In this document: positions 18,719 through 64,000 of the stretch, piece after piece
How positions within the stretch are numbered: position 1 is the first letter of the stretch
Layout of the letters: each line of letters begins with the position of its first letter
Assembly (NCBI GenBank): GCA_964602895.1
Contig: CAZRTG010000001.1
Location: forward strand, 494 to 64,493
Direction of reading: 5' to 3'
Source: an uncultured Wenzhouxiangellaceae bacterium
Lineage (GTDB): Bacteria > Pseudomonadota > Gammaproteobacteria > Xanthomonadales > SZUA-36
DNA: 64,000 nt
The notes under the pieces: generated by a model
What the model saw: the letters and a program-made list of their open reading frames with translations, nothing else
Told to the model about the DNA's origin: nothing
The model's database searches: none
Position numbers and translations under genes: made by a program

Positions 18719-18735
18719 ATGAACAGGAAAACGCC

Positions 18736-19125: not shown

Positions 19126-19139
19126 GTTTACATATAAAC
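19126..19139. promoter_or_regulatory. palindromic operator-like motif GTTTACATATAAAC (copy 3 of 4)
   Basis: Read directly. It lies 71 nt upstream of the TPP-enzyme start. Confidence 0.5.
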
Positions 19140-19209
19140 TATCCTGCCTGGCAAGCAAAACCAAACCAAGCTCGTCAGAATTTCAATCGACATTTTCTGG
19201 TAAAGCACT

Positions 19210-37697: not shown

Positions 37698-37755
37698 TCT
37701 ATTCCTTAATAAATTGAGCGTTTGGGTATTCAGTTCCTGAGTATTAAAAAACCGG

Positions 37756-39315: not shown

Positions 39316-39522
39316 GTATGAGTCTCCACTGCGATCAGGTTGCCAATTAAAGCGCGGTATGCAGGCGGGGATGTAACGGGTTGCCACTTGCGACACGCCT
39401 CATTGTGCTGATCCATCGTGCCGTCTGGCGTGCAGAATCGTCAAACCAAACTTTCTCATACAAAGCATGAAATATGACGGCCGCACCGGGCACTGCCAGG
39501 CAATCAGTCCTGCGGGCTGTAC

Positions 39523-40614: not shown

Positions 40615-40623
40615 GATCGCGTT

Positions 40624-41784: not shown

Positions 41785-41800
41785 GAGCGGACGAAACCCA

Positions 41801-42448: not shown

Positions 42449-43542
42449 GCTTCGGCCTGCATATACTCGGTAATTTTGGCCAGAAAGACTTCATTTTCAT
42501 GCGCTGCCCCCACCGTTACCCGCAGGCAATCGCCGGGTCCGGAGACGCCGGTAGGCCGTAATAATATCCCGTTCTCAGTCAGAAACTTTGCAGCACCCAG
42601 AGCGGTGTGGCCCCGGGTTTCCGGTATTTGCATCAGCAGGAAATTGGTTACGCTGGGCGGTACCTGAATACCGAGGTCCATCAAATGCGCACGCATGCGC
42701 TCACGCCAACTGATGGTGTGATCACGTACCATATCGGCAAATTCATCATCCTGCATGGCCGCTGCCGCAGCCACCTGTGCCGGCCAATTGGTATTAAAAG
42801 GTGTTCTGATGCGCTGGATGGCGTTGACCACGCCAGCAGGTGCATACGCCCAGCCGATACGGGTTCCCGCCAGGCCATATAATTTGGAAAATGTACGGGT
42901 CATGATCACGTTTTGTGAACCACGAACCAACTCAAGGCCACTGTCGAAATCAGCTTCCACCACATAATCCGCGTAGGCACCGTCCAACAGCAACAATACC
43001 GTGGCAGGCAAGCCGGCATGCAAACGCCGGATCTCGTTTGCCGTGAGGTAAGTCCCGGTTGGATTGTTCGGATTCGCTACCGCAACGATACGGGTCTTGT
43101 CGGTTACCGCAGCAAGAATATTGTCAACACTCTGGTCCCAGCCTTGCTCGGCAGCGACAACCACTTTTGCACCCTGGGCAAGAGCATGTATTCGCGTCAT
43201 TACAAAACCGTTTTCGCTTACCAACACCTCATCGCCAGGATCAACAAAGGTGCGGATCGCCAACAGAATCAATTCTTCACTGCCATTGCCGCAAACGATG
43301 CGCTCTTCCTCAATACCGAATTTTTCTGCAATGACCTTGCGTAAAGCAGATTGCGTACCATCGGGATAACGGTGCAAGCTTTCCACTGCTTGCCTGAACG
43401 ATTCCCGGGCACGCGGGCTGGGCCCGAAGGGTGACTCGTTGGAAGAAAGCTTGATGGGGTCGGCAACACCGACTATGGCGCTTTTACCCTGAACATAGGC
43501 CGGACAACTGTCCAGCGCCTTGCGGGGAATCGGATGGCTCAA
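42445..43542 (-). CDS. class-II (HisC-like) PLP aminotransferase (paralogue 2)
   Basis: Contains KLSSNESPFGP, TRTFSKLYGLAGTRIGWAY and RTPFN. Confidence 0.82.
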   Translation of the reverse strand: MSHPIPRKALDSCPAYVQGKSAIVGVADPIKLSSNESPFGPSPRARESFRQAVESLHRYPDGTQSALRKVIAEKFGIEEERIVCGNGSEELILLAIRTFVDPGDEVLVSENGFVMTRIHALAQGAKVVVAAEQGWDQSVDNILAAVTDKTRIVAVANPNNPTGTYLTANEIRRLHAGLPATVLLLLDGAYADYVVEADFDSGLELVRGSQNVIMTRTFSKLYGLAGTRIGWAYAPAGVVNAIQRIRTPFNTNWPAQVAAAAAMQDDEFADMVRDHTISWRERMRAHLMDLGIQVPPSVTNFLLMQIPETRGHTALGAAKFLTENGILLRPTGVSGPGDCLRVTVGAAHENEVFLAKITEYMQAEA

Positions 43543-43595
43543 AACGAGTACTCCTTAACAAAACCTGTAAAACTGAGTCAGTCTGCGGCGAAGAA

Positions 43596-44618
43596 TTAAC
43601 GGAACGGCAGGGCAAACATCAAGCCCCCGTCTTTCCACAAGCGGTTGGGACCTCGTTTCAGCCCAATCGGGGCAAGATTCCGCTCCCACATATCTTCATA
43701 ATTTCCCACCAGACGAATGATGTCGTAGGCCCAGTCGTTGGATAAACCCAGAACTGCGCCAAAGTCACCGTATACGCCCAACAAGCGCTGCACTTCCCGG
43801 TTACCGGACTCTTTGCGCTGTTGTTCAACATTGGCCTGGTTTATGCCGTGCTGTTCGGCCAGTAAACGGATATTGAATGACCATAAAACAATGTCGTGCC
43901 AGCGCGAGTCGTTCTGCCGTACCAACGGCCCCTGAGGCTCATTGGAGATGGTTTCTTCAAGTATCATGTGTGAATCGGGGTCGTACATGCCGGCCATGCG
44001 TGTGGATAAAGCGGCACGCTGCATGGTTAAAGCATCGCAGCGATCGGCTTCGTAAGCTTCCATCGCCTTGTCTGTATCGTTAAAAGTGATCAGCTGATAA
44101 TCGAGGCCTATACTTTCAAAAAGATCGGCCAGGTTTTGTTCCAGCGTTGTGCCCTGGGCCACACAGATCGTGGCTCCGGCCAGATCTGCAACTTTGCTGA
44201 CGTCTTTGTCCTTTCGCACCATGAAGCCCTGGCCGTCATAAAAATAGATACCGGCATAATCCAGGCCCAGTGAGGTATCGCGCAAATAGGACCAGGTCGC
44301 GCCTGCAGGAAACAGGTCGATGGCACCGGATTGCAATAGGGTAAACCCGGTTTGAGGTGTAGCCAGCACATATTCGACTTTGAGTTCGCCAAACACTGCA
44401 GCGGCGATTGTTTTACAGTGATCCACTTCAAATCCGGCCCGCTCACCCCGGGCGTTCAGATAGCTGAAACCCACACCCGACTCGGTAATACCGCATTTCA
44501 GAAAACCGCGTGCCCGGACCTCATCCAGCGTGTCCGCACCAACCCAGGGTGTCGCCAACGTTGTGACAACAGCCAACAACCAACCTAACTGCTTCGCTCT
44601 TGCGACAGGTGTAGCCAT
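43596..44618 (-). CDS. amino-acid ABC transporter periplasmic substrate-binding protein (AapJ-like)
   Basis: Signal peptide plus a type-3 SBP pattern. 340 aa, matching the AapJ size class. Confidence 0.82.
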   Translation of the reverse strand: MATPVARAKQLGWLLAVVTTLATPWVGADTLDEVRARGFLKCGITESGVGFSYLNARGERAGFEVDHCKTIAAAVFGELKVEYVLATPQTGFTLLQSGAIDLFPAGATWSYLRDTSLGLDYAGIYFYDGQGFMVRKDKDVSKVADLAGATICVAQGTTLEQNLADLFESIGLDYQLITFNDTDKAMEAYEADRCDALTMQRAALSTRMAGMYDPDSHMILEETISNEPQGPLVRQNDSRWHDIVLWSFNIRLLAEQHGINQANVEQQRKESGNREVQRLLGVYGDFGAVLGLSNDWAYDIIRLVGNYEDMWERNLAPIGLKRGPNRLWKDGGLMFALPFR

Positions 44619-44644
44619 ATTTCTATGTCCTTGGCAAAGGTCGA

Positions 44645-46207
44645 TTAAAATTCATCCTCCAACATCCCGAAATCTTTCAGCATTTCATGAGCTGTAATCA
44701 CGCCCATGCCACTGATACCGCCTCCCGGGTGACAGGACGGGCCTGCCAGATACATTTTCTCCAGCGGACCACGGTACTGCGAATAGCCGGGAAACGGCCG
44801 GAAATAGCCTAACTGGGCCAGGGTACGTTCGCCACCCGATGGCACACCACCCACAAAACAGGGATTGTGCGCTTCCATGTCTTCGGGCGAATGCGAGAAG
44901 GTTGCAATGATATTGTCATCCGACATATTGGTGGTGTAATTGCGCAGCGTTTTGACCAGTTCTTTGGAGTACTCGTCCTTGATGTCGGACCAACTGCCGC
45001 TGGCCAGTTTGCTGGGCACAAAAGTATCAATCATGAACGTGTGCTTGCCTTCGGGTGCCCGCGATGGGTCACGCAAGCTCCAGCAGTGGCCGTGCACCGG
45101 CGGTGTTGCCGAAGGCTTACCCACACTGAGCTCGGCAAAATGCCGGTCGATATCTTTCATGCTGGTGATGGTGCGCTGGAACGGCGCTTTGCTGATGTTC
45201 TCGCTACCAATATAGTGCGGTGCTTCATGCAGGGCGAAATGCACGCGGAATGAGGCAACATCACCAAAAGTGAAGTTCTCTACCTGTTTGCGGAAACCCG
45301 GATCGAGTTGCTCCTGATCCATCAACTTGAGGAAAGTCTGTTGTGGCTCCAGTGCACTGACCACACCCCTGCTGGCGGTGATCTCGGTACCGTCTTCGAG
45401 GCGGATACCTTTGGCCACACCTCCATCCGTCAGTATTTTGGCCACCGGACTGTTGGTCAGGACCTTACCGCCATTGGCATTGACGTATTTGGCAAGCGCA
45501 TTGGGCAGCGCGATGCTGCCACCTTTCGGTATGGCCTGCCCGTACACGTGGATGGCCGGAATCATGATATAGAAAATATTTCCGGCACCCTGCTGGGTGG
45601 GTTTGATATTGGGTCCCAGAGCCCATGAGGTCAGAAAGGCCTGTATGTGCGGGTTCTCGAAATTCTCCAACACAAAGGCACGTGCACTGAGGCTGTAATT
45701 GCGCAGCATCTTCAGGCCTTCAGTACTGTTTTCCATTGCCGCCGGCAAATAGCTGGGCGGCGATGGCGGGGTGAACATGTTCCTGGTAAAGCCATCCTTG
45801 ATTTCTACAAAGCCATCGTAGATCTCACGATAGCGGGCGGCATCTTTTCTGGAATACTCTGCGATGCTGTCACAGGTTTTGTCCAGGTCACGATAGACAA
45901 TAACCCCGGGACCTTCCTCCATGGGATGACCCATGACCTCATCTTCACCCCATAGGTATTCAAGGCCGTACTTTTCCAACTCGGGCATCAGGTCCTGAAT
46001 GTAGGGATTGGCATGAATCCAGACATGGTTTGAACCGAATAGATCGTGTTTGAAGCCCGGTACGGTCAGTTCCCGGGTGACGGCGCCGCCCCCGACCCAG
46101 TCGTTGCGTTCAGCCACCAGCGTGCGCAAACCGGCACGACACAATACCGCGGCACAGGCCAGGGCGTTATGACCGCCACCGGCAATGACTACATCATAAT
46201 CAGACAT
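44645..46207 (-). CDS. FAD-dependent oxidoreductase, CrtI/amine-oxidase-like (paralogue 3 of 3)
   Basis: Contains DVVIAGGGHNAL, PGFKHD, DLDKTC, PPSY and GPSCHPGGGI. Confidence 0.82.
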   Translation of the reverse strand: MSDYDVVIAGGGHNALACAAVLCRAGLRTLVAERNDWVGGGAVTRELTVPGFKHDLFGSNHVWIHANPYIQDLMPELEKYGLEYLWGEDEVMGHPMEEGPGVIVYRDLDKTCDSIAEYSRKDAARYREIYDGFVEIKDGFTRNMFTPPSPPSYLPAAMENSTEGLKMLRNYSLSARAFVLENFENPHIQAFLTSWALGPNIKPTQQGAGNIFYIMIPAIHVYGQAIPKGGSIALPNALAKYVNANGGKVLTNSPVAKILTDGGVAKGIRLEDGTEITASRGVVSALEPQQTFLKLMDQEQLDPGFRKQVENFTFGDVASFRVHFALHEAPHYIGSENISKAPFQRTITSMKDIDRHFAELSVGKPSATPPVHGHCWSLRDPSRAPEGKHTFMIDTFVPSKLASGSWSDIKDEYSKELVKTLRNYTTNMSDDNIIATFSHSPEDMEAHNPCFVGGVPSGGERTLAQLGYFRPFPGYSQYRGPLEKMYLAGPSCHPGGGISGMGVITAHEMLKDFGMLEDEF

Positions 46208-46218
46208 ACGAAGACTAC

Positions 46219-47880
46219 CTATTCAGCGTTTTGTGACTGGAGCATGCGATTGGAGCGGTTTTCGCCCAACAACAGGAACTTCCAGGGAAAGTCGGTTTTT
46301 CCGAGCGGCATTTCGATCACCACCGGGCCATCCTGCTCAAAGCCAAGACGGATTTTTTCTTCCAGTTCTTCAACTGAGTTTGCGGTATAGCCGGTGGCGC
46401 CAAAACTCTCGGCCATGGCAGCAAAATCCGGGTTGGTCAGATCGGTGCCAATTACGCGGCCACCAAAGCGCTTGGTCTGTGCGCGGGCCACATTGGTGTA
46501 AGCACCATCATTGAAAACGATAATGACCATATTGAGCTTGTAGCGGACTGCGGTAGCCAATTCACCACAATGGAACAGGAATCCGCCGTCACCGCTCAGC
46601 GCTATGACCTTTTTCTCGGGGTTGGCTACTTTCACCCCGATGGCCGTGGGCAAGCCATAACCCAGGTTACCGGCATAACCGCTGGTGATCAGCGTACGCG
46701 GTGCATATACGGGATAACCGTACCAGGAGGCATAGCCCACCTGGGTGATTTCATCCACCAGAATGCCATCATCGGACAAAGCTTCCCGAATCACGCCCAG
46801 TATCGATAACTGGGGCTGCACGTGATCGGAGAACTCCTGGCGCATTTCCTGCTGGAATGCCTTCAGTTCCTGTTCACGGGACGGTCTTGGTGGCAGCTGT
46901 CTGGAAACCAGAGTGGCCAGCAAAGCGGCAACCGAAGGAGCCGCATCGCCGACGATGCCCACATCGGGTTTGGATATCCGGCCAATTTCGGTGGGGTCGA
47001 TATCAATGTGTATGGTTTTCAGATTGACGTCCGTGCCCCAGTGCATACGCGGGTACTTGAAGCGCGTGCCAATGGCGATCGCCACATCAACTTCCGGCCA
47101 CATGCGATGCCCCGCCGGGAAGCTGTGTGCCAGATAATGCTTATCGCTGAGCACACCACGCCCGCCTCGCTGGGACACGACGGGCGCCTGCAGCAGTTCG
47201 GCCAGTTGACGAATTTCTTCACAGGCATGGATCGCCCCGGTTCCCACCAGAATCATGGGCTTTTTGGCACCGGCCAGTAATTTGGCCGCCTGTTCGATCA
47301 ATTCCGGATTGGCCACCACGGTTTCGGGATGATCAACGGGTTCCAGCATCTCGACTTCAGCCTCTTCCGACATGATGTCCAGCGCCATTTCCAACGAAAC
47401 CGGGCGCCTGCGGCCGGTGGTGAGTTGCCTGAAGGCTTCCTTCACTGCTTCAGGCGCATGGGATGGGTGCTCCACTCTTGTGGCCCATTTGGTCATGCGT
47501 TGCAATATACCCAGTTGATCAGGAACATCATGCAGGTAGCCCACACCTCTGCCGATGCCATTGGAGGGCACCTGGCCCGTCAAACAGAGCACCGGCTCAT
47601 TGCAGGCGTAGGCAGTGCTCAATGCGGCAGCAGAATTCAACACACCCGGTCCAGGCACTACGGTATAAACGCCTACTTTGCCAGTAGAGCGGGCATAGCC
47701 AAAGGCCATATAGGCGGCGCCCTGCTCGCTGCGGGTGGTGATCAGGTTGATGTCTTCACCTTTGGCGTACAGGGCGTCAAACAGCTCATAGGTCTGTCCA
47801 CCGGGAATGCCGAAGATCGTGTCAACTCCGTGATTCAACACGGAATCCATCAAGGCCTTTCCGCCCTTCAATTTGGCCAT
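46219..47880 (-). CDS. thiamine-pyrophosphate-dependent enzyme (paralogue 2)
   Basis: Contains SGDGGFLF...VFNDGAY. Start at MAKLKGGK preceded by GAGGAG. The ORF-track start at 47991 is probably too long. Confidence 0.88.
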   Translation of the reverse strand: MAKLKGGKALMDSVLNHGVDTIFGIPGGQTYELFDALYAKGEDINLITTRSEQGAAYMAFGYARSTGKVGVYTVVPGPGVLNSAAALSTAYACNEPVLCLTGQVPSNGIGRGVGYLHDVPDQLGILQRMTKWATRVEHPSHAPEAVKEAFRQLTTGRRRPVSLEMALDIMSEEAEVEMLEPVDHPETVVANPELIEQAAKLLAGAKKPMILVGTGAIHACEEIRQLAELLQAPVVSQRGGRGVLSDKHYLAHSFPAGHRMWPEVDVAIAIGTRFKYPRMHWGTDVNLKTIHIDIDPTEIGRISKPDVGIVGDAAPSVAALLATLVSRQLPPRPSREQELKAFQQEMRQEFSDHVQPQLSILGVIREALSDDGILVDEITQVGYASWYGYPVYAPRTLITSGYAGNLGYGLPTAIGVKVANPEKKVIALSGDGGFLFHCGELATAVRYKLNMVIIVFNDGAYTNVARAQTKRFGGRVIGTDLTNPDFAAMAESFGATGYTANSVEELEEKIRLGFEQDGPVVIEMPLGKTDFPWKFLLLGENRSNRMLQSQNAE

Positions 47881-48171
47881 AGGGGAATTCTCCTCAATGC
47901 GGTACGCTGACTGCCGGACTGCGGTACGCAAATTGTCTAACTGCGGGGCGCAGATGATAAACTTACAGGGACAGAACTTAGTGAAGTTCATTGAACACTA
48001 CAAACGAAAGATATTGATGATTGCCATTAGGCCCCTGATGTCAGACCCGGACTCTGACCTTTGATTTTCATTACCCACTGCTTTAGCCAGCAGGTTGTGG
48101 TTTGTGTCGTATCTCTCCAGGGGCCGAGGTGGAATGTCACTTTGAAAGGTATTCGCTAACAGGACTCATTC

Positions 48172-52582: not shown

Positions 52583-52703
52583 TTCGCGGAGACTCCTTTT
52601 TCAAACTTGTGATGATGTTAGGGGAAAGCAGCCGCTATATACAGTGAGGCTATTAGTTCCAACGTAATTTAGCGCATAAGGGTGCATAAAGGGGGCGGTG
52701 CAT

Positions 52704-52754
52704 AAAGGGGACGGGGCAAATTAATTCGTATTAATTTGCCCCGTCCCCTTTTTT
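52704..52754. repeat. hairpin element copy 1: perfect 19-bp stem GGGGACGGGGCAAATTAAT, 4-nt loop, A-tract/T-tract flanks
   Basis: Read directly. It is preceded at 52672-52703 by degenerate tandem copies of GCATAA(A)GGGG. It sits in a divergent promoter region, so it terminates neither flanking gene. Confidence 0.9.
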
Positions 52755-52796
52755 CCTTGGATAATGAAGTTTTAGTGATGTGAAGCAGGAATACCG

Positions 52797-54242
52797 TTGA
52801 GTCTGTCGTTTGCCACCCTCGTTCAATTACGCAAGAGCCATCCTGGCTGGCGCTTGTTGTTGGCTGACCACGCTGCCCTGATTGCCAGCTTCCTGCAGCA
52901 CACCTTCATCGAGTCGAATGTTCGGGTCATGTCTCAGCCGGAGCTGGAATTGCGTCTGGAGGACTTGCTGTTCCAGCTACGGGAGACCGAGGGCGAGGGC
53001 ACTTTTCCCCGCAGTGCTCGTGACTACCTTGACGACTGGGCACAAACGGATCGCGGCTGGTTGCGCAAATTCTATCCACCCGGATCGGATGAGGCTCACT
53101 TTGACCTCACACCCGCCACTGAGAAGGCCATTGCCTGGCTCGAATCGCTGGCACAGCGGGCTTTTGTAGGCACCGAATCACGTTTGATGACGGTATTTGA
53201 GCTGCTGCGTCAGATGGTTGCCGGCAGTGAAACCGATGCCGCCAGTCGAATTGAAGAACTGGAGCAGCGACGGGATGAAATTGACCGCGAAATTGAACGT
53301 GTCCGAGCGGGCGAAATCAGCGTGCTGGACGATACCGCGCTGCGGGATCGCTTCCAGCAGGCCAGCAGCACGGCCAGAGAACTGCTCAGTGACTTCCGCG
53401 AGGTCGAACACAACTTCCGCCAGCTGGATTTACAGGTGCGCGAGCAGATCGCCCGTTGGGAAGGCCGCAAGGGTGAACTGTTGGGGAAAATCCTGGGCGA
53501 GCGGGATAATATTGCTGACTCGGACCAGGGCCGCAGTTTCCGGGCCTTCTGGGATTTTCTGATGGCACCGGCGAGTCAGGATGAATTGACCGAGCTGTTG
53601 CAAAAGGTGTTCGAGCTCGAAGCCGTGAGCAGCCTCAATATTGATGGCCGTTTCAAGCGCATCCACTTTGACTGGCTCGAAGCCGGCGAGCATACCCAGC
53701 GCACCGTGGCGCGGTTGTCACAACAGTTGCGCCGTTACCTGGACGATCAAGCCTACCTTGAGAACAAACGCATCATGCAACTGCTTGACGGGATCTCAGC
53801 CCGGGCGCTGGCCATTCGCGAGCAGTTGCCTGGCGGTGTTTTTTTTACCCTGGCCGCCTCGTCCCCGACGATACAACTGCCAATGGAGCGTCCGCTCTAC
53901 AACCCGCCGCTGAAACCCGTGCTGGATACCATGATCGCCATGGCTGATATCAGTGATATTGATACCGAAGCCCTATATGATCAGGTCGCTATCGACAAGC
54001 CCCTGCTAAAAGCGCAAATCCGCCAACTGTTGCAACAACGCTCCCAGGTTACGCTCGCAGAAGTGGTGGGCAAACACCCCTTGCAGCACGGACTGGCGGA
54101 ACTGGTTGCGTATCTGACCCTTGCAAGCGAGGAGAAGCATGCTTTGTTTGATGATGACCACCCGGAACAGATTGGCTGGCATGACCCTGATGGCCTGCTG
54201 CGCCAGGCCAGGCTGCCCCGTGTGATATTTTCCAGGCCATGA
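52797..54242 (+). CDS. jetA: Wadjet JetA (MksF-like kleisin, DUF3375-type)
   Basis: 481 aa and the first gene of the four-gene operon. TTG start with AGGA 7 nt upstream. The N-terminal pattern LRKSHPGWRLLLADHAALIASFLQHTF and the helical/charged middle are typical of DUF3375 proteins as I recall them. Confidence 0.8.
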   Translation: MSLSFATLVQLRKSHPGWRLLLADHAALIASFLQHTFIESNVRVMSQPELELRLEDLLFQLRETEGEGTFPRSARDYLDDWAQTDRGWLRKFYPPGSDEAHFDLTPATEKAIAWLESLAQRAFVGTESRLMTVFELLRQMVAGSETDAASRIEELEQRRDEIDREIERVRAGEISVLDDTALRDRFQQASSTARELLSDFREVEHNFRQLDLQVREQIARWEGRKGELLGKILGERDNIADSDQGRSFRAFWDFLMAPASQDELTELLQKVFELEAVSSLNIDGRFKRIHFDWLEAGEHTQRTVARLSQQLRRYLDDQAYLENKRIMQLLDGISARALAIREQLPGGVFFTLAASSPTIQLPMERPLYNPPLKPVLDTMIAMADISDIDTEALYDQVAIDKPLLKAQIRQLLQQRSQVTLAEVVGKHPLQHGLAELVAYLTLASEEKHALFDDDHPEQIGWHDPDGLLRQARLPRVIFSRP

Positions 54243-54841
54243 ATTCAAACCCCAACACCCAGGACAACCGCTTGTCACTGCTGCTGATTGCGCTTATGAA
54301 AGGTGTGTTATATCAGGAGCAGGACGCCAAACTCTGGCAACATCTGCTTGAACTCCAGGCAAGGGTGCGCGACTACGTTGCTGTGCTGGGGCTTGAACTG
54401 ATGCTTGACGAAGCCGAAGGCTATGCCTGGCTGCGCAGTCGCCCTGTCGAAGAGAATGAGACCGAGCTTCCGCGACTGGTGGGCCGGCGTCAGCTGTCCT
54501 ATCCGGTGAGTCTGCTGATCGCGCTGCTGCGGCGTAAATTGGCGGAGTTCGACGCGGGTGGTGGTGACACAAGGCTGATTTTGTCGCGGGATGATATCGT
54601 CGAACTGATGCGAACCTTTCTGCCGCCAGGTTCGACTGAGGCGCGTTTGGTTGATCAGATCGAGGCGCATATCAACAAGGTGGTTGAGCTTGGCTTTGTC
54701 CGACGATTGCGTGGTCAGGAACAGATGGTCGAAGTGCGACGTATACTCAAGGCCTTTGTCGACGCCCAGTGGCTCAATGAATTTGACGCCCGGCTGGCGA
54801 CCTATCAGACACAACTGTCCAACGATGAGGAAACGGACTGA
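54239..54841 (+). CDS. jetB: Wadjet JetB (MksE-like KITE subunit, DUF4194-type)
   Basis: 200 aa. LLLIALMKGVLYQEQDAKLWQHLL...VRDYVAVLGLELMLDEAEGYAWLR matches the DUF4194 pattern. ATGA overlap with jetA. Confidence 0.82.
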   Translation: MNSNPNTQDNRLSLLLIALMKGVLYQEQDAKLWQHLLELQARVRDYVAVLGLELMLDEAEGYAWLRSRPVEENETELPRLVGRRQLSYPVSLLIALLRRKLAEFDAGGGDTRLILSRDDIVELMRTFLPPGSTEARLVDQIEAHINKVVELGFVRRLRGQEQMVEVRRILKAFVDAQWLNEFDARLATYQTQLSNDEETD

Positions 54842-57800
54842 TGCAGGAAGGCTTACTGGATTTCGCTTCCAGCGATGAGCTGGCCGGATTCCGTCTGCAT
54901 CGGCTTGAAGTCTACAACTGGGGCACCTTCGATCAGCGGGTATGGACACTGGACCCCAAAGGTGAAAACAGCTTGCTGACTGGCGACATTGGCTCCGGCA
55001 AGTCGACTCTGGTGGATGCCATCACCACCCTGCTGGTTCCGGCGCAGCGCGTCGCCTATAACAAGGCTGCCGGTGCCGAGTCACGCGAGCGCACTTTGCG
55101 CTCTTATGTGCTTGGCTACTTCAAGTCCGAGCGCAGCGAAAGCGGCCATGCAGCCAAACCCGTTGCCCTGCGCGACCAAAACAATTTCTCCATCATTCTG
55201 GGGGTTTTTCGCAACACCGGTTACGACCAGGACGTGACCCTCGCTCAGGTCTTCTGGAGCAGGGACAGCAGTGGCCAGCCATCGCGATTTTATATCGTTG
55301 CGGATCAGATACTGAGCATTGCCACCGATTTTGCCGATTTTGGCAACGACATCAAACAGCTGCGCAAACGGCTGCGTGAGCGGGCCGGTATTGAAGGGCC
55401 TTTCGACAGTTTTCCACCCTATGAAGCCGCCTTTCGCAGGCGCTTTGGTATCGACAATGCCCAAGCCCTGGAGTTGTTCCATCAGACCGTATCAATGAAG
55501 TCAGTCGGCAACCTCACCGACTTTGTGCGCGAGCACATGCTTGAGGTGTTCGAAGTCGAGCCACGAATTGAGGCCCTGATCAGTCACTTTGAGGATCTCA
55601 ACCGCGCTCACGAAGCGGTACTCAAAGCACGTGACCAGGTCGAACGCCTGACACCCCTGGTACAGGATTGTGAGCGCCACCGCAAAGTCGCCGAACAGAG
55701 TCGCTATTGGCGCGATTGTCGCGACGGTTTGCGGTTCTACTTCGCCGGACTGAAAGCCGGTTTGCTCGACAAGCGCCAGATCAGGCTGAAAGATGAAGCC
55801 GAGCGATTGCGTACCCGCGCCGCGCAACAGGCCGAACTACGGCGGCGTCAGTTGGGTGATCGGGACCAGCTCAAGAGCGCCATTGCTGCCAATGGGGGTG
55901 ACCGCCTGGAACGGCTCAAGACCGAAATCGGCGCACGCCATTCAGAATTACAAAAACGCCGCACACGCGCTGACCGATACGCCGAGTTGGCCGACCGCCT
56001 TGAACTGCCCCGCGTCACATCGCTCGATCAATTTCTCAACAATCGCAGTAGCGTGCAACAACGCCTGGCCACGACCGATGAGCGCGAAACGGAACTGCAG
56101 AACAGCAGCGTTGACCAGGCTGTTGAACTGCGGCGCCTGAAAGCCGACCACAGCGCTCTCGACACCGAACTGACCTCGTTGCGTCAGCGCCGCAGTAATA
56201 TCGAAGCACGTCAGATCCAGATTCGCCGCCTGTTGTGTGATGCACTCGGGCTGGACGAGGCCGAAATGCCATTTGTCGGCGAACTGCTGCAGGTGCGTGA
56301 GTCTGAATCCGCCTGGGAAGGTGTGGCTGAAAGGCTGTTACACAATTTCAGTCTGTCACTGTTGGTGCCCGATCCGCATTACGCAGCCGTTGCCGAATGG
56401 GTTGATCGCACGCAGCTCCAGGGCCGCTTGGTGTACTACCGTGTACGCTCCGATCACAGGGCCGCACCGGCAGCAGATACCCAACCCGACTCGCTGGTAC
56501 ACAAGCTTGATATCAAGCCGGACAGCGAATTCTACTCCTGGCTGGAGCAGGAGTTGGTCAGGCGCTTTGACTATGTTTGCTGCGACTCGCTGGAGCGTTT
56601 CCGTCGGGAACATCGTGCGGTGACTCTGGCCGGCCAGGTCAAAACCGGCGGGCAGCGCCACGAAAAGGATGATCGGCACCGGCTTGATGATCGCAGCCGT
56701 TATGTATTGGGCTGGAGCAATGAGGCCAAAATCGCCGCATTGCAAAATCGATCGCAAGGACTGGAGCAGGAGATCCAGGCTGCAGCCGATCGCCTGGCTA
56801 TCGCGCAGCGCCACATTCGTGAGCTCAGCGAAGAGAAATCCAGTCTCGTGCAAATTGAAATGTTTATCGATTTTGATGAACTTGACTGGCAGCAGTTGGC
56901 CCGCAGCATTGCCGACCTGGAAGCGGACCGGGCTGCTCTGGAAGCCAGCTCGGATACACTGAAAACCCTCAACGCCCAGTTGCTTGCGCTGGAAGATGAC
57001 ATGGCCAAGGCCGAACAGCATCTTATGGCGCTGAATAACGATCTGGCACGCAACGATGAAAAGCAGGCCCAGGTCAGTGCCCAGCTTGAAGACTGCCACG
57101 AACAACTCGCTGCCTGTACTGAAGAAGTCCGTGCCGGTCTCGATGCCGAACTGGAACCACTGCGTGCCCGGGCGCTGGGCGAGCATCTGTTGACGGTGGA
57201 ATCCTGCGACAACCGGGAACGCGAAATGCGCGAGTGGTTGCAAGCCAGGATCGACACTTCAGATAAACGTATGCAACGACTGGAGCAGAGCATAGTCGCC
57301 GCCATGCAGGATTACCGTCACGCGTACCCACTGGACACCCAGGAGGTCGACGCCCGTCTCGAAGCTGCTGACGAGTACGGTCAGATGCTGGAGCAACTAA
57401 AGGCGGACGATCTGCCGCGTTTTGCCAAGCGCTTCAAGGCATTACTGAACGAGAATACGATTCGTGAGGTAGCCGGATTTCAGTCCAAGCTCAAAAGTGA
57501 GCGCCAGATCATCCAGGAGCGTATCGACCGCATCAACCAGTCGCTGGCTGATATCGAATACAACCCCGGACGCTATATCGTGCTTGAAGCCCAGGCCAAC
57601 CAGGACGCCGAAATTCGTGACTTCCAACAGCAACTGCGCGCCTGCACTGAAGGCACTTTCACCGGTACGGAAGAAGAAAATTATGCCGAAACCAAGTTCC
57701 TGCAAGTCAAGGAGATCATTGATCGCTTGCGCGGCCGTGAAGGCACCACGGAGCTGGACCGGCGCTGGACCCGCAAGGTTACTGATGTGCGCAACTGGTA

Positions 57801-58215
57801 TCAGTTTGCAGCCTCGGAACGATGGCAACACGACGGCAGTGAATACGAACACTACACGGATTCCGGTGGCAAGTCGGGTGGCCAAAAGGAGAAGCTGGCC
57901 TACACCGTGCTCGCTGCCAGCCTGGCTTACCAGTTCGGTCTTGAATGGGGCGCTGTGCGCTCACGCAGCTTCCGTTTTGTAGTGATCGACGAAGCTTTTG
58001 GCCGCGGTTCCGATGAATCGGCACGTTACGGCCTGGAACTGTTCAAACGTTTGCATCTGCAACTGTTGATTGTCACACCGCTACAGAAAATCCATATCAT
58101 CGAACCGTTTGTTGCCAACGTCGGCTTTGTGCACAACCCTGATGGCCGCGACTCACAACTGCGCAACCTCAGCATTCAGGAATACCGCGCCGAACGAGAA
58201 GCACGTTCGGCATGA
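54841..58215 (+). CDS. jetC: Wadjet JetC (MksB/MukB-like SMC ATPase)
   Basis: 1124 aa. N-terminal Walker A GDIGSGKST. About 700 aa of Glu/Arg/Leu-rich coiled coil. C-terminal signature-like SGGQKE and Walker B FVVIDEAF. The start overlaps the jetB stop. Confidence 0.88.
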   Translation: MQEGLLDFASSDELAGFRLHRLEVYNWGTFDQRVWTLDPKGENSLLTGDIGSGKSTLVDAITTLLVPAQRVAYNKAAGAESRERTLRSYVLGYFKSERSESGHAAKPVALRDQNNFSIILGVFRNTGYDQDVTLAQVFWSRDSSGQPSRFYIVADQILSIATDFADFGNDIKQLRKRLRERAGIEGPFDSFPPYEAAFRRRFGIDNAQALELFHQTVSMKSVGNLTDFVREHMLEVFEVEPRIEALISHFEDLNRAHEAVLKARDQVERLTPLVQDCERHRKVAEQSRYWRDCRDGLRFYFAGLKAGLLDKRQIRLKDEAERLRTRAAQQAELRRRQLGDRDQLKSAIAANGGDRLERLKTEIGARHSELQKRRTRADRYAELADRLELPRVTSLDQFLNNRSSVQQRLATTDERETELQNSSVDQAVELRRLKADHSALDTELTSLRQRRSNIEARQIQIRRLLCDALGLDEAEMPFVGELLQVRESESAWEGVAERLLHNFSLSLLVPDPHYAAVAEWVDRTQLQGRLVYYRVRSDHRAAPAADTQPDSLVHKLDIKPDSEFYSWLEQELVRRFDYVCCDSLERFRREHRAVTLAGQVKTGGQRHEKDDRHRLDDRSRYVLGWSNEAKIAALQNRSQGLEQEIQAAADRLAIAQRHIRELSEEKSSLVQIEMFIDFDELDWQQLARSIADLEADRAALEASSDTLKTLNAQLLALEDDMAKAEQHLMALNNDLARNDEKQAQVSAQLEDCHEQLAACTEEVRAGLDAELEPLRARALGEHLLTVESCDNREREMREWLQARIDTSDKRMQRLEQSIVAAMQDYRHAYPLDTQEVDARLEAADEYGQMLEQLKADDLPRFAKRFKALLNENTIREVAGFQSKLKSERQIIQERIDRINQSLADIEYNPGRYIVLEAQANQDAEIRDFQQQLRACTEGTFTGTEEENYAETKFLQVKEIIDRLRGREGTTELDRRWTRKVTDVRNWYQFAASERWQHDGSEYEHYTDSGGKSGGQKEKLAYTVLAASLAYQFGLEWGAVRSRSFRFVVIDEAFGRGSDESARYGLELFKRLHLQLLIVTPLQKIHIIEPFVANVGFVHNPDGRDSQLRNLSIQEYRAEREARSA

Positions 58216-59384
58216 ATCGCTGGACCACCGCCGATGACCTGCGTGGTCAATTGCTTAAATTGTGGAACCGGGGACGCTTGCTGGCCGATCCTGAAATTCT
58301 TCCGTTGCGTTTGCCACTGCGAGGCCCACAGGCAGGCGAGCTCGGTGCCCGTTTCGCCGCCGTCCGCGACTGGGTGCAATTGTGGGCACAACAGGAAGAG
58401 CAAAAGGGTTTGACTGTCGAGTGGCGCGAAGTCAACTACCGCGAGATCGGCCGCAATCGGCTACCTGCAGCGGTATTGTTTCAACAGCGTGATCAGGCCT
58501 TGGCTTATATCGGCAAACGCCAGTCGGGACGTGATTTTGATCGTTTGCAAGAGCAGATATTGCCATTGTTTCCCGAATTGCGGGATTGGTTGGTGCGTAA
58601 ACCGTTGCAAGCATTGGAACTGAAAGAACAGTGGCCGCGCCTGCTGATGGTATTGGATTGGCTTCGTGCACACCCACGACCTGGCCTGTACATCCGCCAG
58701 ATCGAACTACCCGGTGTTGATACCAAATTTATCGAAGGTCACCGAAAGGTGTTGGCCGAGTTGTTGGATGGTGTGCTCGAACCGGCGCACATCGACTTTG
58801 CAGCGCGAGGCATTTCCAGTTTCGAACAGCGCTACGGTTTTCGCGCCAAGCCGGCGCAGATTCGTTTCCGATTGCTTGATAGCAGGCTGTATGTGCAAAG
58901 CTTGAGTGACTTGCAAATTCCTCTGGAAGACTTTGCCCGGCTTGAGTTTCCGGTCGAGCGGGTATTTATTACCGAGAACGATATCAATGGCCTGGCTTTC
59001 CCCGACTTTCCAAATTCATTGGTGGTCTTTGGCCTGGGTTATGGGCTTGACAGCCTGAAGGGCGCGAACTGGCTGGCGAGCACTGATATTCACTATTGGG
59101 GTGATATTGACAGTCATGGATTCGCCATGCTCGATCAATTGCGCAGTTATTTCCCGCACGCCAGCTCACTGTTGATGGATCGACCCACTCTGCTGGCCCA
59201 CGAAGCCCTTTGGGGTTCTGAATCCATCCCAACGCGCAAGCCCTTGCTGCGACTAAAGCCTGAAGAACAGGCGCTGTATCAGGATCTTAGCCTGGACCGA
59301 ATTGCTCCATCGCTGCGTCTCGAACAGGAACGGATTGGAATCGCCTATTTGCAACAAGCCCTCCACGTACTTAATGGTACTTAA
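58212..59384 (+). CDS. jetD: Wadjet JetD (MksG-like, DUF3322 + Toprim-like DUF2220 nuclease subunit)
   Basis: 390 aa. Toprim-like acidic motifs ITENDING and HYWGDIDSHGFAML. ATGA overlap with jetC. Confidence 0.85.
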   Translation: MNRWTTADDLRGQLLKLWNRGRLLADPEILPLRLPLRGPQAGELGARFAAVRDWVQLWAQQEEQKGLTVEWREVNYREIGRNRLPAAVLFQQRDQALAYIGKRQSGRDFDRLQEQILPLFPELRDWLVRKPLQALELKEQWPRLLMVLDWLRAHPRPGLYIRQIELPGVDTKFIEGHRKVLAELLDGVLEPAHIDFAARGISSFEQRYGFRAKPAQIRFRLLDSRLYVQSLSDLQIPLEDFARLEFPVERVFITENDINGLAFPDFPNSLVVFGLGYGLDSLKGANWLASTDIHYWGDIDSHGFAMLDQLRSYFPHASSLLMDRPTLLAHEALWGSESIPTRKPLLRLKPEEQALYQDLSLDRIAPSLRLEQERIGIAYLQQALHVLNGT

Positions 59385-59428
59385 AGGGGACGGGGCAAAT
59401 TAATTCAAATTAATTTGCCCCGTCCCCT
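59383..59428. repeat. hairpin element copy 2 (perfect 20-bp stem); also a plausible bidirectional terminator between jetD and parE
   Basis: Read directly. The stem sequence is identical to copy 1. The element begins inside the jetD TAA stop codon. Confidence 0.9.
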
Positions 59429-59434
59429 ATTTCC

Positions 59435-59486
59435 TCGCAGTTGATGGGTGTCCGAGCTTTTCGCAGTTGATGGGTGTCCGGACTTT
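59435..59486. repeat. tandem direct repeat, 2 x 26 bp (TCGCAGTTGATGGGTGTCCG-AGCTTT / -GACTTT)
   Basis: Read directly; 24 of 26 positions are identical. It lies between hairpin copy 2 and the parE stop. Confidence 0.85.
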
Positions 59487-59492
59487 TCGTTT

Positions 59493-59819
59493 TTAACGAA
59501 TCAGGCGACGTTCAAGCAATGAAGGTATATCCCTGCGGCCATCCAGGATGCAATGAACGAAAACGTCCTGTCGGGTTATCTCGTAGATGACACGATAGGG
59601 TTTGAAGTGAACCTCTCTGTAGCTTGATACGCCGATTCGTTCCAGTTCGGGTGGAATATGTCCTCGCTCGGGCAGATTGGTTAACCGTGAGCACAAAGAC
59701 TCCAACTGATTCAACACATGATCTGCATTCTCTATGCAGTCATTGAGAACAATGTAGCGGTAGATATCAACCAGATCCTGTTCTGCGTCCTCGACAATTC
59801 GGACACGATAGTTTTTCAC
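59493..59819 (-). CDS. parE: type II toxin, RelE/ParE family
   Basis: 108 aa. The pattern A--DL--I--YI ... PERG ... YR-V-FKPYRVIY-I----V-V--IL-GRRD is typical of ParE-type toxins. GTG start abuts the antitoxin stop. Confidence 0.82.
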   Translation of the reverse strand: MKNYRVRIVEDAEQDLVDIYRYIVLNDCIENADHVLNQLESLCSRLTNLPERGHIPPELERIGVSSYREVHFKPYRVIYEITRQDVFVHCILDGRRDIPSLLERRLIR

Positions 59820-60101
59820 TCAGCCAGTTACCTGCCGTGTTTGCTTACGAACATCAGAAAAGGCCTTTTTAAGGGGTTTGCTGCGACCTTCCTGGATACT
59901 TTTCGAGCTTTGGGCCAACATCTTGAGCAGCGCCAAAGATTCCTGGGTTTGCTCATAGCTGACAATATCCTGGAGCACAGCCCTGACTTCGCCATTTTGT
60001 GTTATCACCATGGCCTGCCGTCCTTCACTGACATCCCGTAGAGCTTCGGCAGTGTGACTTTTCAAGTAGCTGATGGGCCTGACCGATTTGCTCAGCTTCA
60101 T
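59820..60101 (-). CDS. type II antitoxin, Phd/YefM family
   Basis: 93 aa. N-terminal ISYLKSHTAEALRDVSEGRQAMVITQNGEVRAVLQDIVSYEQ is the Phd/YefM fold pattern. Confidence 0.82.
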   Translation of the reverse strand: MKLSKSVRPISYLKSHTAEALRDVSEGRQAMVITQNGEVRAVLQDIVSYEQTQESLALLKMLAQSSKSIQEGRSKPLKKAFSDVRKQTRQVTG

Positions 60102-62024: not shown

Positions 62025-63107
62025 ATGTCAATGATTCAGACCAGACTATCATCACCCATTACGCGCGCGACCGGCGTCGTTCCGGGCGGCTATGACCGTG
62101 TTGCATCGACGATGGCGTTGGTGCCGTTGCTGGAGCAATTCGGGGTGGGCCTGGACAGTTTGCTGGCCGAATCCGGATTGCCAATTGGCCTGTTCGATCA
62201 TCCCGACAACCTGATTCCCTTCAGGGAAGGCACCCGCCTGCTTGGGCTTTGTGCAGACCGTACCGGATGCCCGCACTTTGGCCTGCTGATAGGTGATGGG
62301 ACGCCGTTGGAGGCCTACGGCATCGTGAGCGAATTGATGAAGTGCGCGGCGGACGTACGGTCCGCACTGCAACTGATGTGCCGATTCATGACGCTCGCCG
62401 ACGGAGGCGGGTTGCTGATGCTGTCCGAAACCCGGCAGTTCGCCCGTTTCAGTTATTCGGTCTACGAACCGGGTGTCGAGCGTACCGAGGTGCTCGGCGA
62501 CATCGTCCTGGGCGTGTCGTGCAACGTGCTACGCGCACTTTGTGGCAGCAAGTGGCAGCCGCACGAAATTCTCTTTTCGCGTAGCCGACCGATCGACATC
62601 CGACCCTACGCCGAGACCCTTAAAGCACCCTTGCGCTTCGATGTCGAACAATCTGCAGTGGTGTTCGAGCGCTCGTGGCTGGATGCTCCGCTAGCCACAG
62701 CCAATCCTGCTCGATTGCACAGCCTTGAGGCCAAAGCCCGTGCGTTGGAAGCCAGTGAAACGGGTGATCTGGTTGCGCAAGTGCGTCGTGTCGTGCGCCG
62801 ACAACTACTGACTGGAACCTGTTCGATGCAATCCATTGCCAACGAGTTGGGTATGCACCGACGCACCCTGGACAGGAAACTGCATCCCTTTGAAGTCACA
62901 TTCAAAACGCTGAGTGACGAGATCCGCTATGAAGTATCGCGTCAACTCCTGGCCGATACCGCGATGCCGGTGACCGCGATCTCACAAAGCCTCCACTACG
63001 CCGACCCCAGTGCGTTCACGCACGCATTCCGTCGGTGGTCAGGCACCACACCCACACAATGGCGCGAATCCGTAAAGGGGACGGGAAAAGGGGACGGGAT
63101 AAATTAA
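62025..63107 (+). CDS. AraC-family transcriptional regulator (N-terminal AraC-type ligand-binding domain, C-terminal double HTH)
   Basis: C-terminal block IANELGMHRRTLDRKL ... ISQSLHYADPSAFTHAFRRWSGTTPTQWR. The start is uncertain (62025/62031/62118). The last 11 codons and the stop are encoded by hairpin element copy 3. Confidence 0.85.
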   Translation: MSMIQTRLSSPITRATGVVPGGYDRVASTMALVPLLEQFGVGLDSLLAESGLPIGLFDHPDNLIPFREGTRLLGLCADRTGCPHFGLLIGDGTPLEAYGIVSELMKCAADVRSALQLMCRFMTLADGGGLLMLSETRQFARFSYSVYEPGVERTEVLGDIVLGVSCNVLRALCGSKWQPHEILFSRSRPIDIRPYAETLKAPLRFDVEQSAVVFERSWLDAPLATANPARLHSLEAKARALEASETGDLVAQVRRVVRRQLLTGTCSMQSIANELGMHRRTLDRKLHPFEVTFKTLSDEIRYEVSRQLLADTAMPVTAISQSLHYADPSAFTHAFRRWSGTTPTQWRESVKGTGKGDGIN

Positions 63108-63136
63108 TCCGGATTAATTTGCCCCGTCCCCTCTTT
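63074..63136. repeat. hairpin element copy 3 (21-bp arms, 19/21 paired, left half-arm AAAGGGGACGGG duplicated)
   Basis: Read directly. GGGGACGGGATAAATTAATCC / GGATTAATTTGCCCCGTCCCC. Confidence 0.88.
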
Positions 63137-63154: not shown

Positions 63155-63203
63155 TGGCGCGCCCGACAAGATTCGAACTTGTGACCCCTGCCTTCGGAGG
63201 GCA
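63155..63203 (-). tRNA. truncated tRNA-Arg(CCG): 3' 49 nt only (anticodon arm to CCA); att-site-like remnant
   Basis: The reverse complement reads TGCC-CTCCGAA-GGCAG-GGGTC-ACAAG-TTCGAAT-CTTGT-CGGGCGC-G-CCA. This gives an anticodon loop with CCG, a perfect T-arm, the acceptor 3' strand and CCA. No D-arm or 5' acceptor strand follows on the 5' side. Confidence 0.7.
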
Positions 63204-63330
63204 TTTTTTCCTGTTTTCTATTCAAGAACATAGATAGCTATCTATATGTTTTTATTCTGTATAAATCTGACAATATCGGCTATTATCTACCCAAGGTGGC
63301 TAAACTTTCACTTGGGTTGCACTTGCAAAC

Positions 63331-64000
63331 ATGCCGAAGCGATCAAAAACAAGAATCTCTGACAAAACTGTAAAGCGTAAACCAACCGACCGGCCACAAG
63401 AGTTCCGGGACTGTGACCTTCGTGGTTTCATTCTCAGAATCGAACCAACGGGAACCAAGACTTTTTACTGCGAGTGGGCAAGGGGTAAGAGGAGCCGGAT
63501 CGGTGATGCCAGCCTAATGACCCTGGAATTTGCCAGGGATACTGCGCGAACTCGAATTAATGAAGCAAAGAATGGCGAAGTTCCGGAACCTCAAATTCGA
63601 TCCCGCATTCCAACACTGAAAAGATTGATGGACGATCACTATCGTGATTGGGCAGAGACTCACCAAAAATCAGGCAAAGCCAATTGCAAACGCACAAACG
63701 CTGCTTTCAGTGAGTTCCTCTCTACCAGGATTGACAAAATTTCTCCTTGGCAGATCGACAAGTGGAAATCTGAACGAAAGAAGTCGGGCACAACTCCAGC
63801 AACAATAAATAGGGATCTACGTGGGCTTCGGGCAGCTTTAAACAAGGCTGTAGAGTGGAATTTGGTTAAAAGCAACCCGATCCGTTCCGTCAAGCTACTT
63901 AAAGGTGCGGATATTCCACGGGTGCGCTACTTATCAACGGAAGAGGAAAAGCGGCTAATGAAGGCGTTGGACGCAAGAGAGGTCAGAAAAAGGACAAAGC
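63331..64000 (+). CDS. int: tyrosine recombinase/integrase (P4-type, N-terminal arm-binding plus core-binding domains), 5' part only
   Basis: Hand translation gives MPKRSKTRISDKTVKRKPTDRPQEFRDCDLRGFILRIEPTGTKTFYCEW...TINRDLRGLRAALNKAVEWNLVKSNPIRSVK...RYLSTEEEKRL. The frame stays open to the window edge, so it is missing from the ORF track. Confidence 0.82.
   Translation, partial: MPKRSKTRISDKTVKRKPTDRPQEFRDCDLRGFILRIEPTGTKTFYCEWARGKRSRIGDASLMTLEFARDTARTRINEAKNGEVPEPQIRSRIPTLKRLMDDHYRDWAETHQKSGKANCKRTNAAFSEFLSTRIDKISPWQIDKWKSERKKSGTTPATINRDLRGLRAALNKAVEWNLVKSNPIRSVKLLKGADIPRVRYLSTEEEKRLMKALDAREVRKRTK

Follow-up and report, generated by a model that had tools for sequence, protein, structure and literature searches.

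Wadjet systems restrict small circular DNA through ATP-dependent loop extrusion and cleavage by JetD (10.1101/2022.10.04.510915, PMC10889018). The MksBEFG system of Corynebacterium glutamicum defends the cell against plasmids, its nuclease being MksG (PMC10123090). Several contacts and catalytic residues have been mapped in these complexes. F919 of E. coli JetC, the 'larynx' phenylalanine, fits into the aCAP pocket of JetD and is required in vivo (10.1101/2023.11.03.565488), and an E248A mutant of E. coli JetD is cleavage-deficient. In characterised type I systems, an IFDR motif in the N-terminal tail of JetB is reported to contact the JetD aCAP (PMC10586767; 10.1101/2025.03.10.642339). Type II Wadjet possesses a tandem KITE (10.1101/2025.03.10.642339).

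The operon described here occupies positions 52797-59384 of the window, i.e. the whole 64-kb stretch of DNA that was analysed. Its four genes and their order are those of the type I Wadjets of E. coli GF4-3 (8as8, 8bfn, 8q72) and P. aeruginosa PA14 (8dk1-3, 7til). Sequence identity to these systems is low; the Walker A, signature and Walker B motifs of JetC are the same, and equivalents of F919 and E248 as well as the JetD DxD motif are present. JetD also shares the arm-CAP and Toprim architecture of C. glutamicum MksG (8b7f), which belongs to a plasmid-defence system. This comparison, which concerns JetD and MksG, yields only 23% identity in the structural alignment, and the host of MksG is an actinobacterium. 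With high confidence, we identify the four genes as an intact type I Wadjet operon (JetABCD; alias MksBEFG, EptABCD), the proposed mechanism being taken from characterised homologues (10.1101/2022.10.04.510915, PMC10889018, PMC10123090, PMC10586767).

Results

The genes jetA, jetB, jetC and jetD lie next to each other on the plus strand, in this order, and stop and start codons overlap at all three junctions. jetA (52797-54242) starts with TTG and codes for a kleisin subunit of 481 aa, jetB (54239-54841) for a KITE subunit of 200 aa, jetC (54841-58215) for an SMC ATPase of 1124 aa and jetD (58212-59384) for a Toprim nuclease of 390 aa. The overlaps read ATGA between jetA and jetB (54239-54242), TGATG between jetB and jetC (54839-54843) and ATGA between jetC and jetD (58212-58215). 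All four reading frames are full length and free of frameshifts and premature stops.

The initial annotation had listed four coupled genes of exactly these sizes, had named the operon a Wadjet, most consistent with type I by size, and had assigned the first two products to DUF3375 and DUF4194. Coordinates, lengths and junctions were reproduced, and Pfam, PADLOC and solved structures agree on the identity. The Pfam matches of all four proteins are far above the gathering scores, and each protein matches solved JetA, JetB, JetC, JetD or MksG chains in the PDB. PADLOC holds separate models for type II and type III Wadjet. At E<=0.01, its Jet hits comprised only the type I models JetA1, JetB1, JetC1 and JetD1, each matched nearly end to end, and no type II or III profile, which bears out the type assignment. 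An NCBIfam scan gave no equivalog match for JetA, JetB or JetD, i.e. three of the four proteins, and therefore provides no curated equivalog support.

DUF3375 (PF11855, 2.4e-158) covers residues 11-478 of JetA and profile positions 2-474 of 474. The protein also matches PADLOC JetA1 (5.7e-218) and the solved JetA chain 8q72_E (4.3e-22), and it spans the same nWHD-bundle-cWHD arrangement as the type I JetA of E. coli GF4-3 and P. aeruginosa PA14. JetB is recognised by DUF4194 (PF13835, 1.2e-47), by MksE (PF21980, 3.2e-20) and by PADLOC JetB1 (1.1e-94). Its 200 aa hold one domain, a single KITE according to Pfam, unlike the tandem form of type II. The match to the solved JetB chain 8dk1_E is weak (5.8e-05) and begins at chain residue 57-62. 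Compared with the 249-250 aa of its E. coli GF4-3 and P. aeruginosa PA14 counterparts, JetB is a short form without the N-terminal ~37-40 residues, where the IFDR motif is reported to lie; 200 aa is the maximum length of the reading frame, and an upstream extension is impossible. The short form is common among relatives (198-200 aa in L007, L008 and L069, see below). In an alignment of 122 sequences comprising JetB and its relatives, the motif [ILVMF]F[DE]R was not found within the first 70 residues. The N-terminal IFDR tail is a sub-architecture of the E. coli GF4-3 and PA14 kind and does not define Wadjet.

JetC carries the Pfam domains AAA_29 (6.2e-26, residues 19-79) and SbcC_Walker_B (8e-25, residues 979-1069). 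It matches PADLOC JetC1 with E=0 over residues 3-1122 of 1124 and can be aligned along its whole length with solved JetC (8dk2_C, 2e-70 over 17-1113; 8as8_A, 3.7e-60). All three motifs pointed out at first are there, namely Walker A GDIGSGKST (K54), the signature SGGQKE (1012-1017, S1012) and Walker B FVVIDEAF (D1050/E1051), and they align with solved heads as a split ABC/SMC head. Signature and Walker B align with the solved JetC heads, and the glutamate is kept where the 8dk1 construct has glutamine. The intervening stretch had been described as about 700 aa of coiled coil; coiled coils are indeed found, but according to the end-to-end alignment to solved JetC the stretch also includes the hinge. 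F940 is aligned to the larynx residue F919 of E. coli JetC (8as8/9qxt).

JetD combines DUF3322 (PF11795, 1.1e-56) with JetD_C (PF09983, 8.8e-54), corresponding to arm-CAP and Toprim, and matches PADLOC JetD1 (1.2e-143). In the PDB, MksG (8b7f) was the best match by sequence (2.7e-27), the JetD(E248A) chain 8q72_M was also found, and the matches to the JetD structures of E. coli GF4-3 and P. aeruginosa PA14 were weak (7e-13 and 5e-12). The acidic motifs initially read as Toprim-like, ITENDING (E255) and YWGDIDSHGF (D298/D300, the DxD), are present in a protein that Pfam assigns to JetD_C, and E255 is aligned to E248 of E. coli JetD. E255, D298 and D300 are invariant across 33 homologues. An AF2 model of JetD, a fold prediction that had been recommended as a check, is of high confidence (pLDDT 92.4), and its best Foldseek matches are MksG 8b7f (2.5e-21, TM 0.59-0.62), 7til and 8q72.

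Uncharacterised Wadjet operons of environmental Gammaproteobacteria were available for comparison. JetD of the L069-type strain is 96% identical, those of L007 and L008 reach 75-77%, and that of Marinobacterium iners P0031 reaches 60%. L069, a second strain from a separate sequencing run, has the same operon with intact genes at 96.7% identity. In L007 and L008, nucleotide homology (77-78%) is confined to 52809-59345 and the flanks are unrelated. Their operon occupies a different chromosomal site (tadA-mltF-purL), the REP palindromes are absent there, and unrelated toxin-antitoxin modules adjoin it. jetC of L007 is split into ORFs of 779 and 329 aa. An empty site was sought via the neighbouring amidase gene; the closest relative, L068 (63%), is rearranged relative to the window and therefore permits no before/after comparison of the Wadjet site.

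The only promoter match found for jetABCD is a weak one at 52736-52765 on the plus strand. This sigma-70-like sequence, TTGCCC-18-GATAAT, agrees with the consensus in 9 of 12 positions and would serve as the jetA promoter. Its -35 lies inside the right arm of a REP-type palindrome, H1 (52697-52753), located in the intergenic region between the divergent amidase gene and jetA. The -10 GATAAT, a GGAA ribosome-binding site and the TTG start all have aligned counterparts in the jetA leaders of L007 and L008, both of which keep the same TTG. H1 has a perfect 22-bp stem and a 4-nt loop, and its RNA fold reaches −40.4 kcal/mol (z −5.6). Partial arm copies are found just upstream, at 52680-52706. A second palindrome, H2 (59376-59432), is situated directly after the jetD stop, between the convergent genes jetD and parE. 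With folds of −36.8 and −36.4 kcal/mol on the two strands, H2 is probably a bidirectional terminator that ends jetABCD transcription. The contig of the 96.7% identical strain L069 breaks within H2. The third copy, H3 (63080-63136), overlaps the 3′ end of an AraC-family gene (stop 63107); miRNA matches obtained on H3 with Rfam at a relaxed threshold were dismissed as generic hairpin matches.

The hairpins had been called identical and had been taken to bracket an accessory block. H1 and H2 are nearly so, with 91% identity over 57 nt and identical arms, but their loops differ, and they mark no special boundary. The arm sequence matches the window six times, as against 0.02 matches expected by chance, and the palindrome family occurs in 58 metagenome contigs and 3 genome loci. 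When 185k species genomes were scanned for the arm, only six single hits resulted; three were due to chance, and three represent the same palindrome in Gammaproteobacteria/Lysobacterales MAGs. The hairpins are thus a dispersed REP-type family scattered through the lineage; their occurrence in many unrelated contexts rules them out as Wadjet-specific elements or island boundaries. The family resembles REP/REPIN and RAYT systems in its short, highly structured intergenic palindromes with many dispersed copies, which often break assemblies, and in a Y1 transposase gene with a copy on either side. This gene was found in L024 (7927-8655) between palindromes at 7128-7163 and 8641-8676. Its product (Y1_Tnp 4.3e-13) has the motifs NHIHML (HUH) and YRYIELNP (Tyr) and is a candidate RAYT of the IS200-like type; no RAYT was found among the ORFs scanned in the window. 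In contrast to REP/REPIN, the centre and outer stem of the palindromes vary yet remain self-complementary, and the arms often occur as nested or partial copies. Integron attC sites were ruled out, as the hairpins are perfect short palindromes, lack the R″/R′ core sites of attC and are associated with a Y1 transposase. The arm sequence AAAGGGGACGGGGCAAATTAA was absent from Rfam and from the literature searched.

Next to H2, outside the Wadjet operon, lies a type II toxin-antitoxin pair on the minus strand (59493-60101). Pfam identifies this pair, mentioned in the initial annotation as a neighbour, as phd-parE (ParE_toxin 2.1e-17, PhdYeFM_antitox 1.2e-13). A pair that travels with Wadjet was ruled out, ParE/Phd of L008 and HigB of L007 being unrelated to the pair in the window. 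The tRNA att remnant postulated further downstream is sub-threshold. A fragment resembling the 3′ two-thirds of tRNA-Arg(CCG) was identified by eye at 63155-63203 on the minus strand from its anticodon loop, T-arm, acceptor 3′ strand and CCA, and probably represents an att repeat. The Rfam tRNA model scored 21.9 bits at 63158-63229 on the minus strand, below its gathering score of 29; nothing in the window reached gathering score in Rfam, and ARAGORN called no tRNA, the remnant included. The 64-kb window holds no second copy of the fragment that could act as att partner, and therefore gives no evidence that Wadjet is part of an integrase island. The neighbouring integrase itself exists: the N-terminal part of a tyrosine integrase (63333-64000, plus strand; Arm-DNA-bind_3 1.8e-08, Int_N 1.2e-06, Phage_int_SAM_5) accounts for 223 aa before the gene runs off the end of the window. 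Its island extends away from Wadjet.

Discussion

Judged by their characterised homologues, the jetABCD genes would be expressed and their products would have ATPase activity, extrude DNA loops and restrict plasmids. In the SMC motor, JetA as the kleisin would close a JetC dimer that carries a JetB dimer, and two motors would be linked via the N-termini of JetA. Once loaded onto DNA, the complex is expected to extrude loops driven by ATP. If the DNA is a small closed circle, the motors would collide and stall, and the stalled complex would bend the leftover DNA. A JetD dimer, docked on the JetC head via its arm-CAP domain, could then cleave the bent DNA with its Toprim active site, so that incoming plasmids would be destroyed and the chromosome spared. 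The missing N-terminal tail of JetB, the weakness of the only promoter match, with its -35 inside a palindrome, and the NCBIfam result weigh against this reading. The locus is an ordinary, routine copy of a well-described system. It places one further intact type I Wadjet, from an uncultured sediment-type gammaproteobacterium, beside the thousands already catalogued, adds nothing new on the mechanism of the family and is of modest practical value.

Operons of this kind have historically been described as MksBEF condensins (reference 35 of PMC10586767). A MksBEF- or MukBEF-like condensin for chromosome organisation, in which the fourth gene supplies an accessory factor and no defence nuclease, would agree with this description, with the MksE match of JetB and with weak SMC_prok_B hits of JetC in NCBIfam (4.2e-11), which are far below the cut-off. 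We nevertheless regard it as very unlikely, since JetD is complete, has an intact Toprim site and is translationally coupled, and since close relatives harbour the operon at different loci, which is unexpected for a core system of chromosome organisation. Moreover, MksBEFG of C. glutamicum serves plasmid defence with MksG as nuclease (PMC10123090). The chance that the 1124-aa protein has no relation to Wadjet and is instead an SMC-like ATPase of repair or defence, of the RecN/SbcC/Rad50 or Lamassu type, is negligible. The name of its C-terminal Pfam match, SbcC_Walker_B, the label 'SbcCD C subunit-like' of homologues in plasmid records and weak PADLOC LmuB hits (3.7e-13) might suggest such a protein. 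The LmuB match, however, is partial and restricted to the coiled coil, as opposed to the practically complete JetC1 match, and the full-length alignment to solved JetC and the presence of JetA, JetB and JetD partners argue against it. Pfam, PADLOC and solved-structure matches refute such an ATPase.

The type I Wadjet operon might also be silent or decaying in this host, for instance if a REP insertion removed the native -35, and immunity would then be absent. H1 sits where the relatives keep a conserved leader upstream of the -10, the promoter match is poor, and the split jetC of L007 indicates that decay occurs in this clade. Against this stand four uninterrupted full-length reading frames, the retention of -10, ribosome-binding site and TTG start, catalytic residues that are all intact, and the intact genes of the strain L069, which was sequenced in a different run. 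A silent operon thus appears quite unlikely.

The intact type I Wadjet is at the same time a clean representative of the sub-lineage with short JetB. Neither the PDB hits nor the literature searched contained a structure or an assay of a member. This large sub-lineage might license JetD without the N-terminal IFDR contact of JetB.

As a self-contained accessory module, the operon has a copy of a REP-type palindrome of the host on each side, and Wadjet marks the region from 52.7 to 63.1 kb as variable, accessory DNA. Homology to the relatives ends about 50 nt or less from either palindrome, and the relatives hold the operon elsewhere without palindromes. For these two reasons, the 6.7-kb operon might have been relocated or captured en bloc via its bounding REP palindromes, e.g. 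by RAYT-related or REP-REP recombination. We consider this quite unlikely; if true, REP/RAYT repeats would be junctions for shuffling defence modules. The REP/RAYT family, itself new to Rfam and the searched literature, explains assembly breaks in these metagenomes.

A type I Wadjet operon with conserved catalytic residues

The jetABCD operon comprises jetA (52797-54242, 481 aa, TTG start), jetB (54239-54841, 200 aa), jetC (54841-58215, 1124 aa) and jetD (58212-59384, 390 aa), all on the plus strand. Sizes, strand and overlapping codons are exactly those given in the initial annotation, and every motif it quoted from the 1124-aa and 390-aa proteins was found. The gene junctions read ATGA, TGATG and ATGA, indicating that all three are translationally coupled. 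Upstream of jetA, a GGAA ribosome-binding site precedes the TTG start, and the -35 region of a weak promoter match is supplied by the right arm of the REP-type palindrome H1. Relatives share the -10 region, the ribosome-binding site and the TTG start.

Profile searches placed all four proteins in the Jet/Mks families, as had been proposed. Pfam assigned JetA to DUF3375 over its full length (2.4e-158), JetB to DUF4194 (1.2e-47) and MksE, JetC to AAA_29 and SbcC_Walker_B, and JetD to DUF3322 and JetD_C. The Jet models of PADLOC matched nearly end to end and were type I in every case (JetA1, 5.7e-218; JetB1, 1.1e-94; JetC1, E=0, residues 3-1122; JetD1, 1.2e-143), which bears out the earlier type I assignment. 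A scan of NCBIfam returned no equivalog match for JetA, JetB or JetD and exclusively sub-threshold SMC matches for JetC. Among PDB entries, JetC matched its P. aeruginosa and E. coli counterparts over the whole length (2e-70 and 3.7e-60), JetD matched MksG of C. glutamicum (2.7e-27) as well as the two JetD proteins of known structure, and JetA and JetB matched the solved JetA and JetB chains. Judged from its sequence, this is a typical type I Wadjet operon and apparently a functional one. The family is already described, and the locus adds one further type I copy.

Besides gene content, the analysis shows the critical residues and the fold. JetC carries Walker A K54, the signature S1012-GGQKE and Walker B D1050/E1051; the aligned counterparts of signature and Walker B in solved JetC are SGGEKE and LDEAF, and the Walker B glutamate is kept here, whereas the 8dk1 construct has glutamine at the same place. 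F940 of JetC aligns with E. coli F919, which enters a hydrophobic pocket of the JetD arm-CAP domain (aCAP) and is needed in vivo (10.1101/2023.11.03.565488). The JetD residue E255, within ITENDING, corresponds in the alignment to E248 of E. coli, where the alanine mutant E248A is cleavage-deficient. Neither E255 nor the DxD pair (D298/D300) varies across 33 homologues (52-77% identity). The Toprim-like fold anticipated for JetD was recovered in a confident AlphaFold2 model (mean pLDDT 92.4, pTM 0.72), whose only strong PDB matches were MksG 8b7f (2.5e-21), JetD 7til and the JetD fragment in 8q72.

By homology, the locus should act like characterised type I Wadjet systems (10.1101/2022.10.04.510915, PMC10889018, 10.1101/2023.11.03.565488, PMC10123090, PMC10586767). 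Two JetA-bridged JetC2-JetB2 motors would dimerise, extrude DNA and stall against one another on a small circle, and the leftover DNA would be bent and then cut by a JetD dimer. Expression and activity of jetABCD are what we infer from this homology.

A short JetB without the N-terminal tail

JetB of E. coli and P. aeruginosa is 249-250 aa long, and the alignment of the 200-aa JetB begins at their residue 57-62; the ORF has no room for a longer reading. It therefore lacks the N-terminal tail in which characterised type I systems carry the IFDR motif, reported to contact the JetD aCAP (PMC10586767; 10.1101/2025.03.10.642339). An exhaustive search over 1.84 billion representatives yielded 197 JetB representatives at E<=1e-30, among which short JetBs predominate, which makes this a common, uncharacterised sub-lineage rather than a quirk of this locus. 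Across 122 aligned sequences (this JetB plus listed matches of 185-290 aa), a median of 12 residues precedes the first helix, and no sequence has an IFDR-like motif among its first 70 residues. For a Wadjet with a short JetB, searches of the PDB and the literature yielded neither a solved structure nor an assay. Since the validated JetC phenylalanine contact is conserved, a different mechanism is not expected. The short-JetB lineage may recruit JetD independently of the JetB tail; this is unproven and unlikely to alter the picture of the Wadjet family.

REP-type palindromes around the operon

A palindrome whose stem pairs perfectly over 21-22 bp (AAAGGGGACGGGGCAAATTAA-loop-TTAATTTGCCCCGTCCCCTTT; folding energy -35 to -40 kcal/mol) occurs at 52697-52753 (H1, upstream of jetA), 59376-59432 (H2) and 63080-63136 (H3), with no other copy in the window. 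The initial annotation had taken these hairpins for identical brackets of an accessory block. However, H1 and H2 are 91% identical, with the same arms but different loops, and the element is dispersed rather than specific to the locus. Three Gammaproteobacteria/Lysobacterales MAGs have one copy each, which in L002 and L004 lies directly 3' of stop codons between convergent genes, and the element is also present in 58 metagenome contigs (L010-L067). Eleven of the 67 tabulated copies lie <=70 nt from a locus end, as expected of a multicopy repeat that breaks assemblies, and a contig from a 96.7%-identical strain (L069) breaks within H2. The mid-arm is constant. The centre and outer stem vary without losing self-complementarity, and partial or nested copies of the arms are common. 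Contig L024 (7128-8676) has a 242-aa ORF between two copies; its product matches an IS200-like Y1 transposase domain (4.3e-13) and shows the HUH and Tyr motifs NHIHML and YRYIELNP, respectively. Copies flanking a Y1 transposase gene are the arrangement that defines REP elements with their RAYT. The hairpins are copies of a lineage-wide REP/RAYT repeat, a family absent from Rfam and whose sequence was not found in a literature search.

H2 lies directly 3' of the jetD stop codon between convergent genes and is most simply read as a bidirectional terminator. The operon may have been captured through REP elements, an unproven reading that is unlikely to alter the picture of the Wadjet family.

Partial arm copies flank palindromes, or elements are nested, at L063 ~3990-4080, in L018, L023 and L041, and at 52680-52706 and 63068-63092 of the window; in L063 a whole element sits between both arms of an outer one. 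Loop centres are often palindromic restriction-like hexamers (GTCGAC, GCCGGC, GTTAAC, CGGCCG). Together, these features suggest self-targeted insertion or fold-back copying. ORFs running into the palindrome share a C-terminal tail that its left arm encodes, as in an AraC regulator (window 63080-63107, ...KGDGIN*) and the RAYT-like protein (L024 8641-8655, ...KGDGAN*), so the repeat appears to have replaced or extended native gene 3' ends. Between H2 and the parE stop codon, a 26-nt unit (TCGCAGTTGATGGGTGTCCGAGCTTT) is tandemly duplicated at 59435-59486 in perfect register with 92% identity.

Genomic setting

The setting is that of an accessory operon. In the relatives L007 and L008 (JetD 75-77% identical), it lies at a different site (tadA-mltF-purL) without the palindromes, and nucleotide homology to them is limited to 52809-59345. 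Tetranucleotide composition is modestly atypical at 52-64 kb (L1 distance 0.20-0.22 versus 0.12-0.17 elsewhere). Plasmid-borne JetD relatives are <=52% identical, the best listed residing on very large replicons (0.48-2.05 Mb).

To the right of the operon follow a ParE/Phd toxin-antitoxin pair (59493-60101), a DUF1254/DUF1214 protein, the AraC regulator and H3. After H3, a tRNA-Arg(CCG)-like 3' fragment occupies 63155-63203 on the minus strand; its Rfam score is sub-threshold (21.9 bits), ARAGORN did not call it, and the window holds no second copy. Next to it is the N-terminus of a tyrosine integrase whose gene runs past the window end (64000). The fragment is probably the border of an integrated element situated past the window; judging by its orientation, the integrase island would run to the right and away from Wadjet. 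The operon adjoins this island and nothing places it inside. The remainder of the window holds catabolic and transport genes.

A type II toxin-antitoxin pair lies directly beside the operon at all three Wadjet loci examined: HigB/HTH in L007 (3546-4234), ParE/Phd in L008 (3793-4516) and the ParE/Phd pair here. As the pairs are mutually unrelated, the association is recurrent yet independent. In L007 (6632-10004; JetD 75% identical), jetC was called as 779- and 329-aa ORFs, reflecting either a pseudogene or an assembly frameshift error. Elsewhere in the window, two paralogous catabolic sets (13276-20853 and 36540-47991) each encode a class I/II aminotransferase, a flavin amine oxidase, a CN-hydrolase and a TPP-dependent enzyme in differing order and orientation, which suggests either parallel pathways or a segment duplicated long ago.
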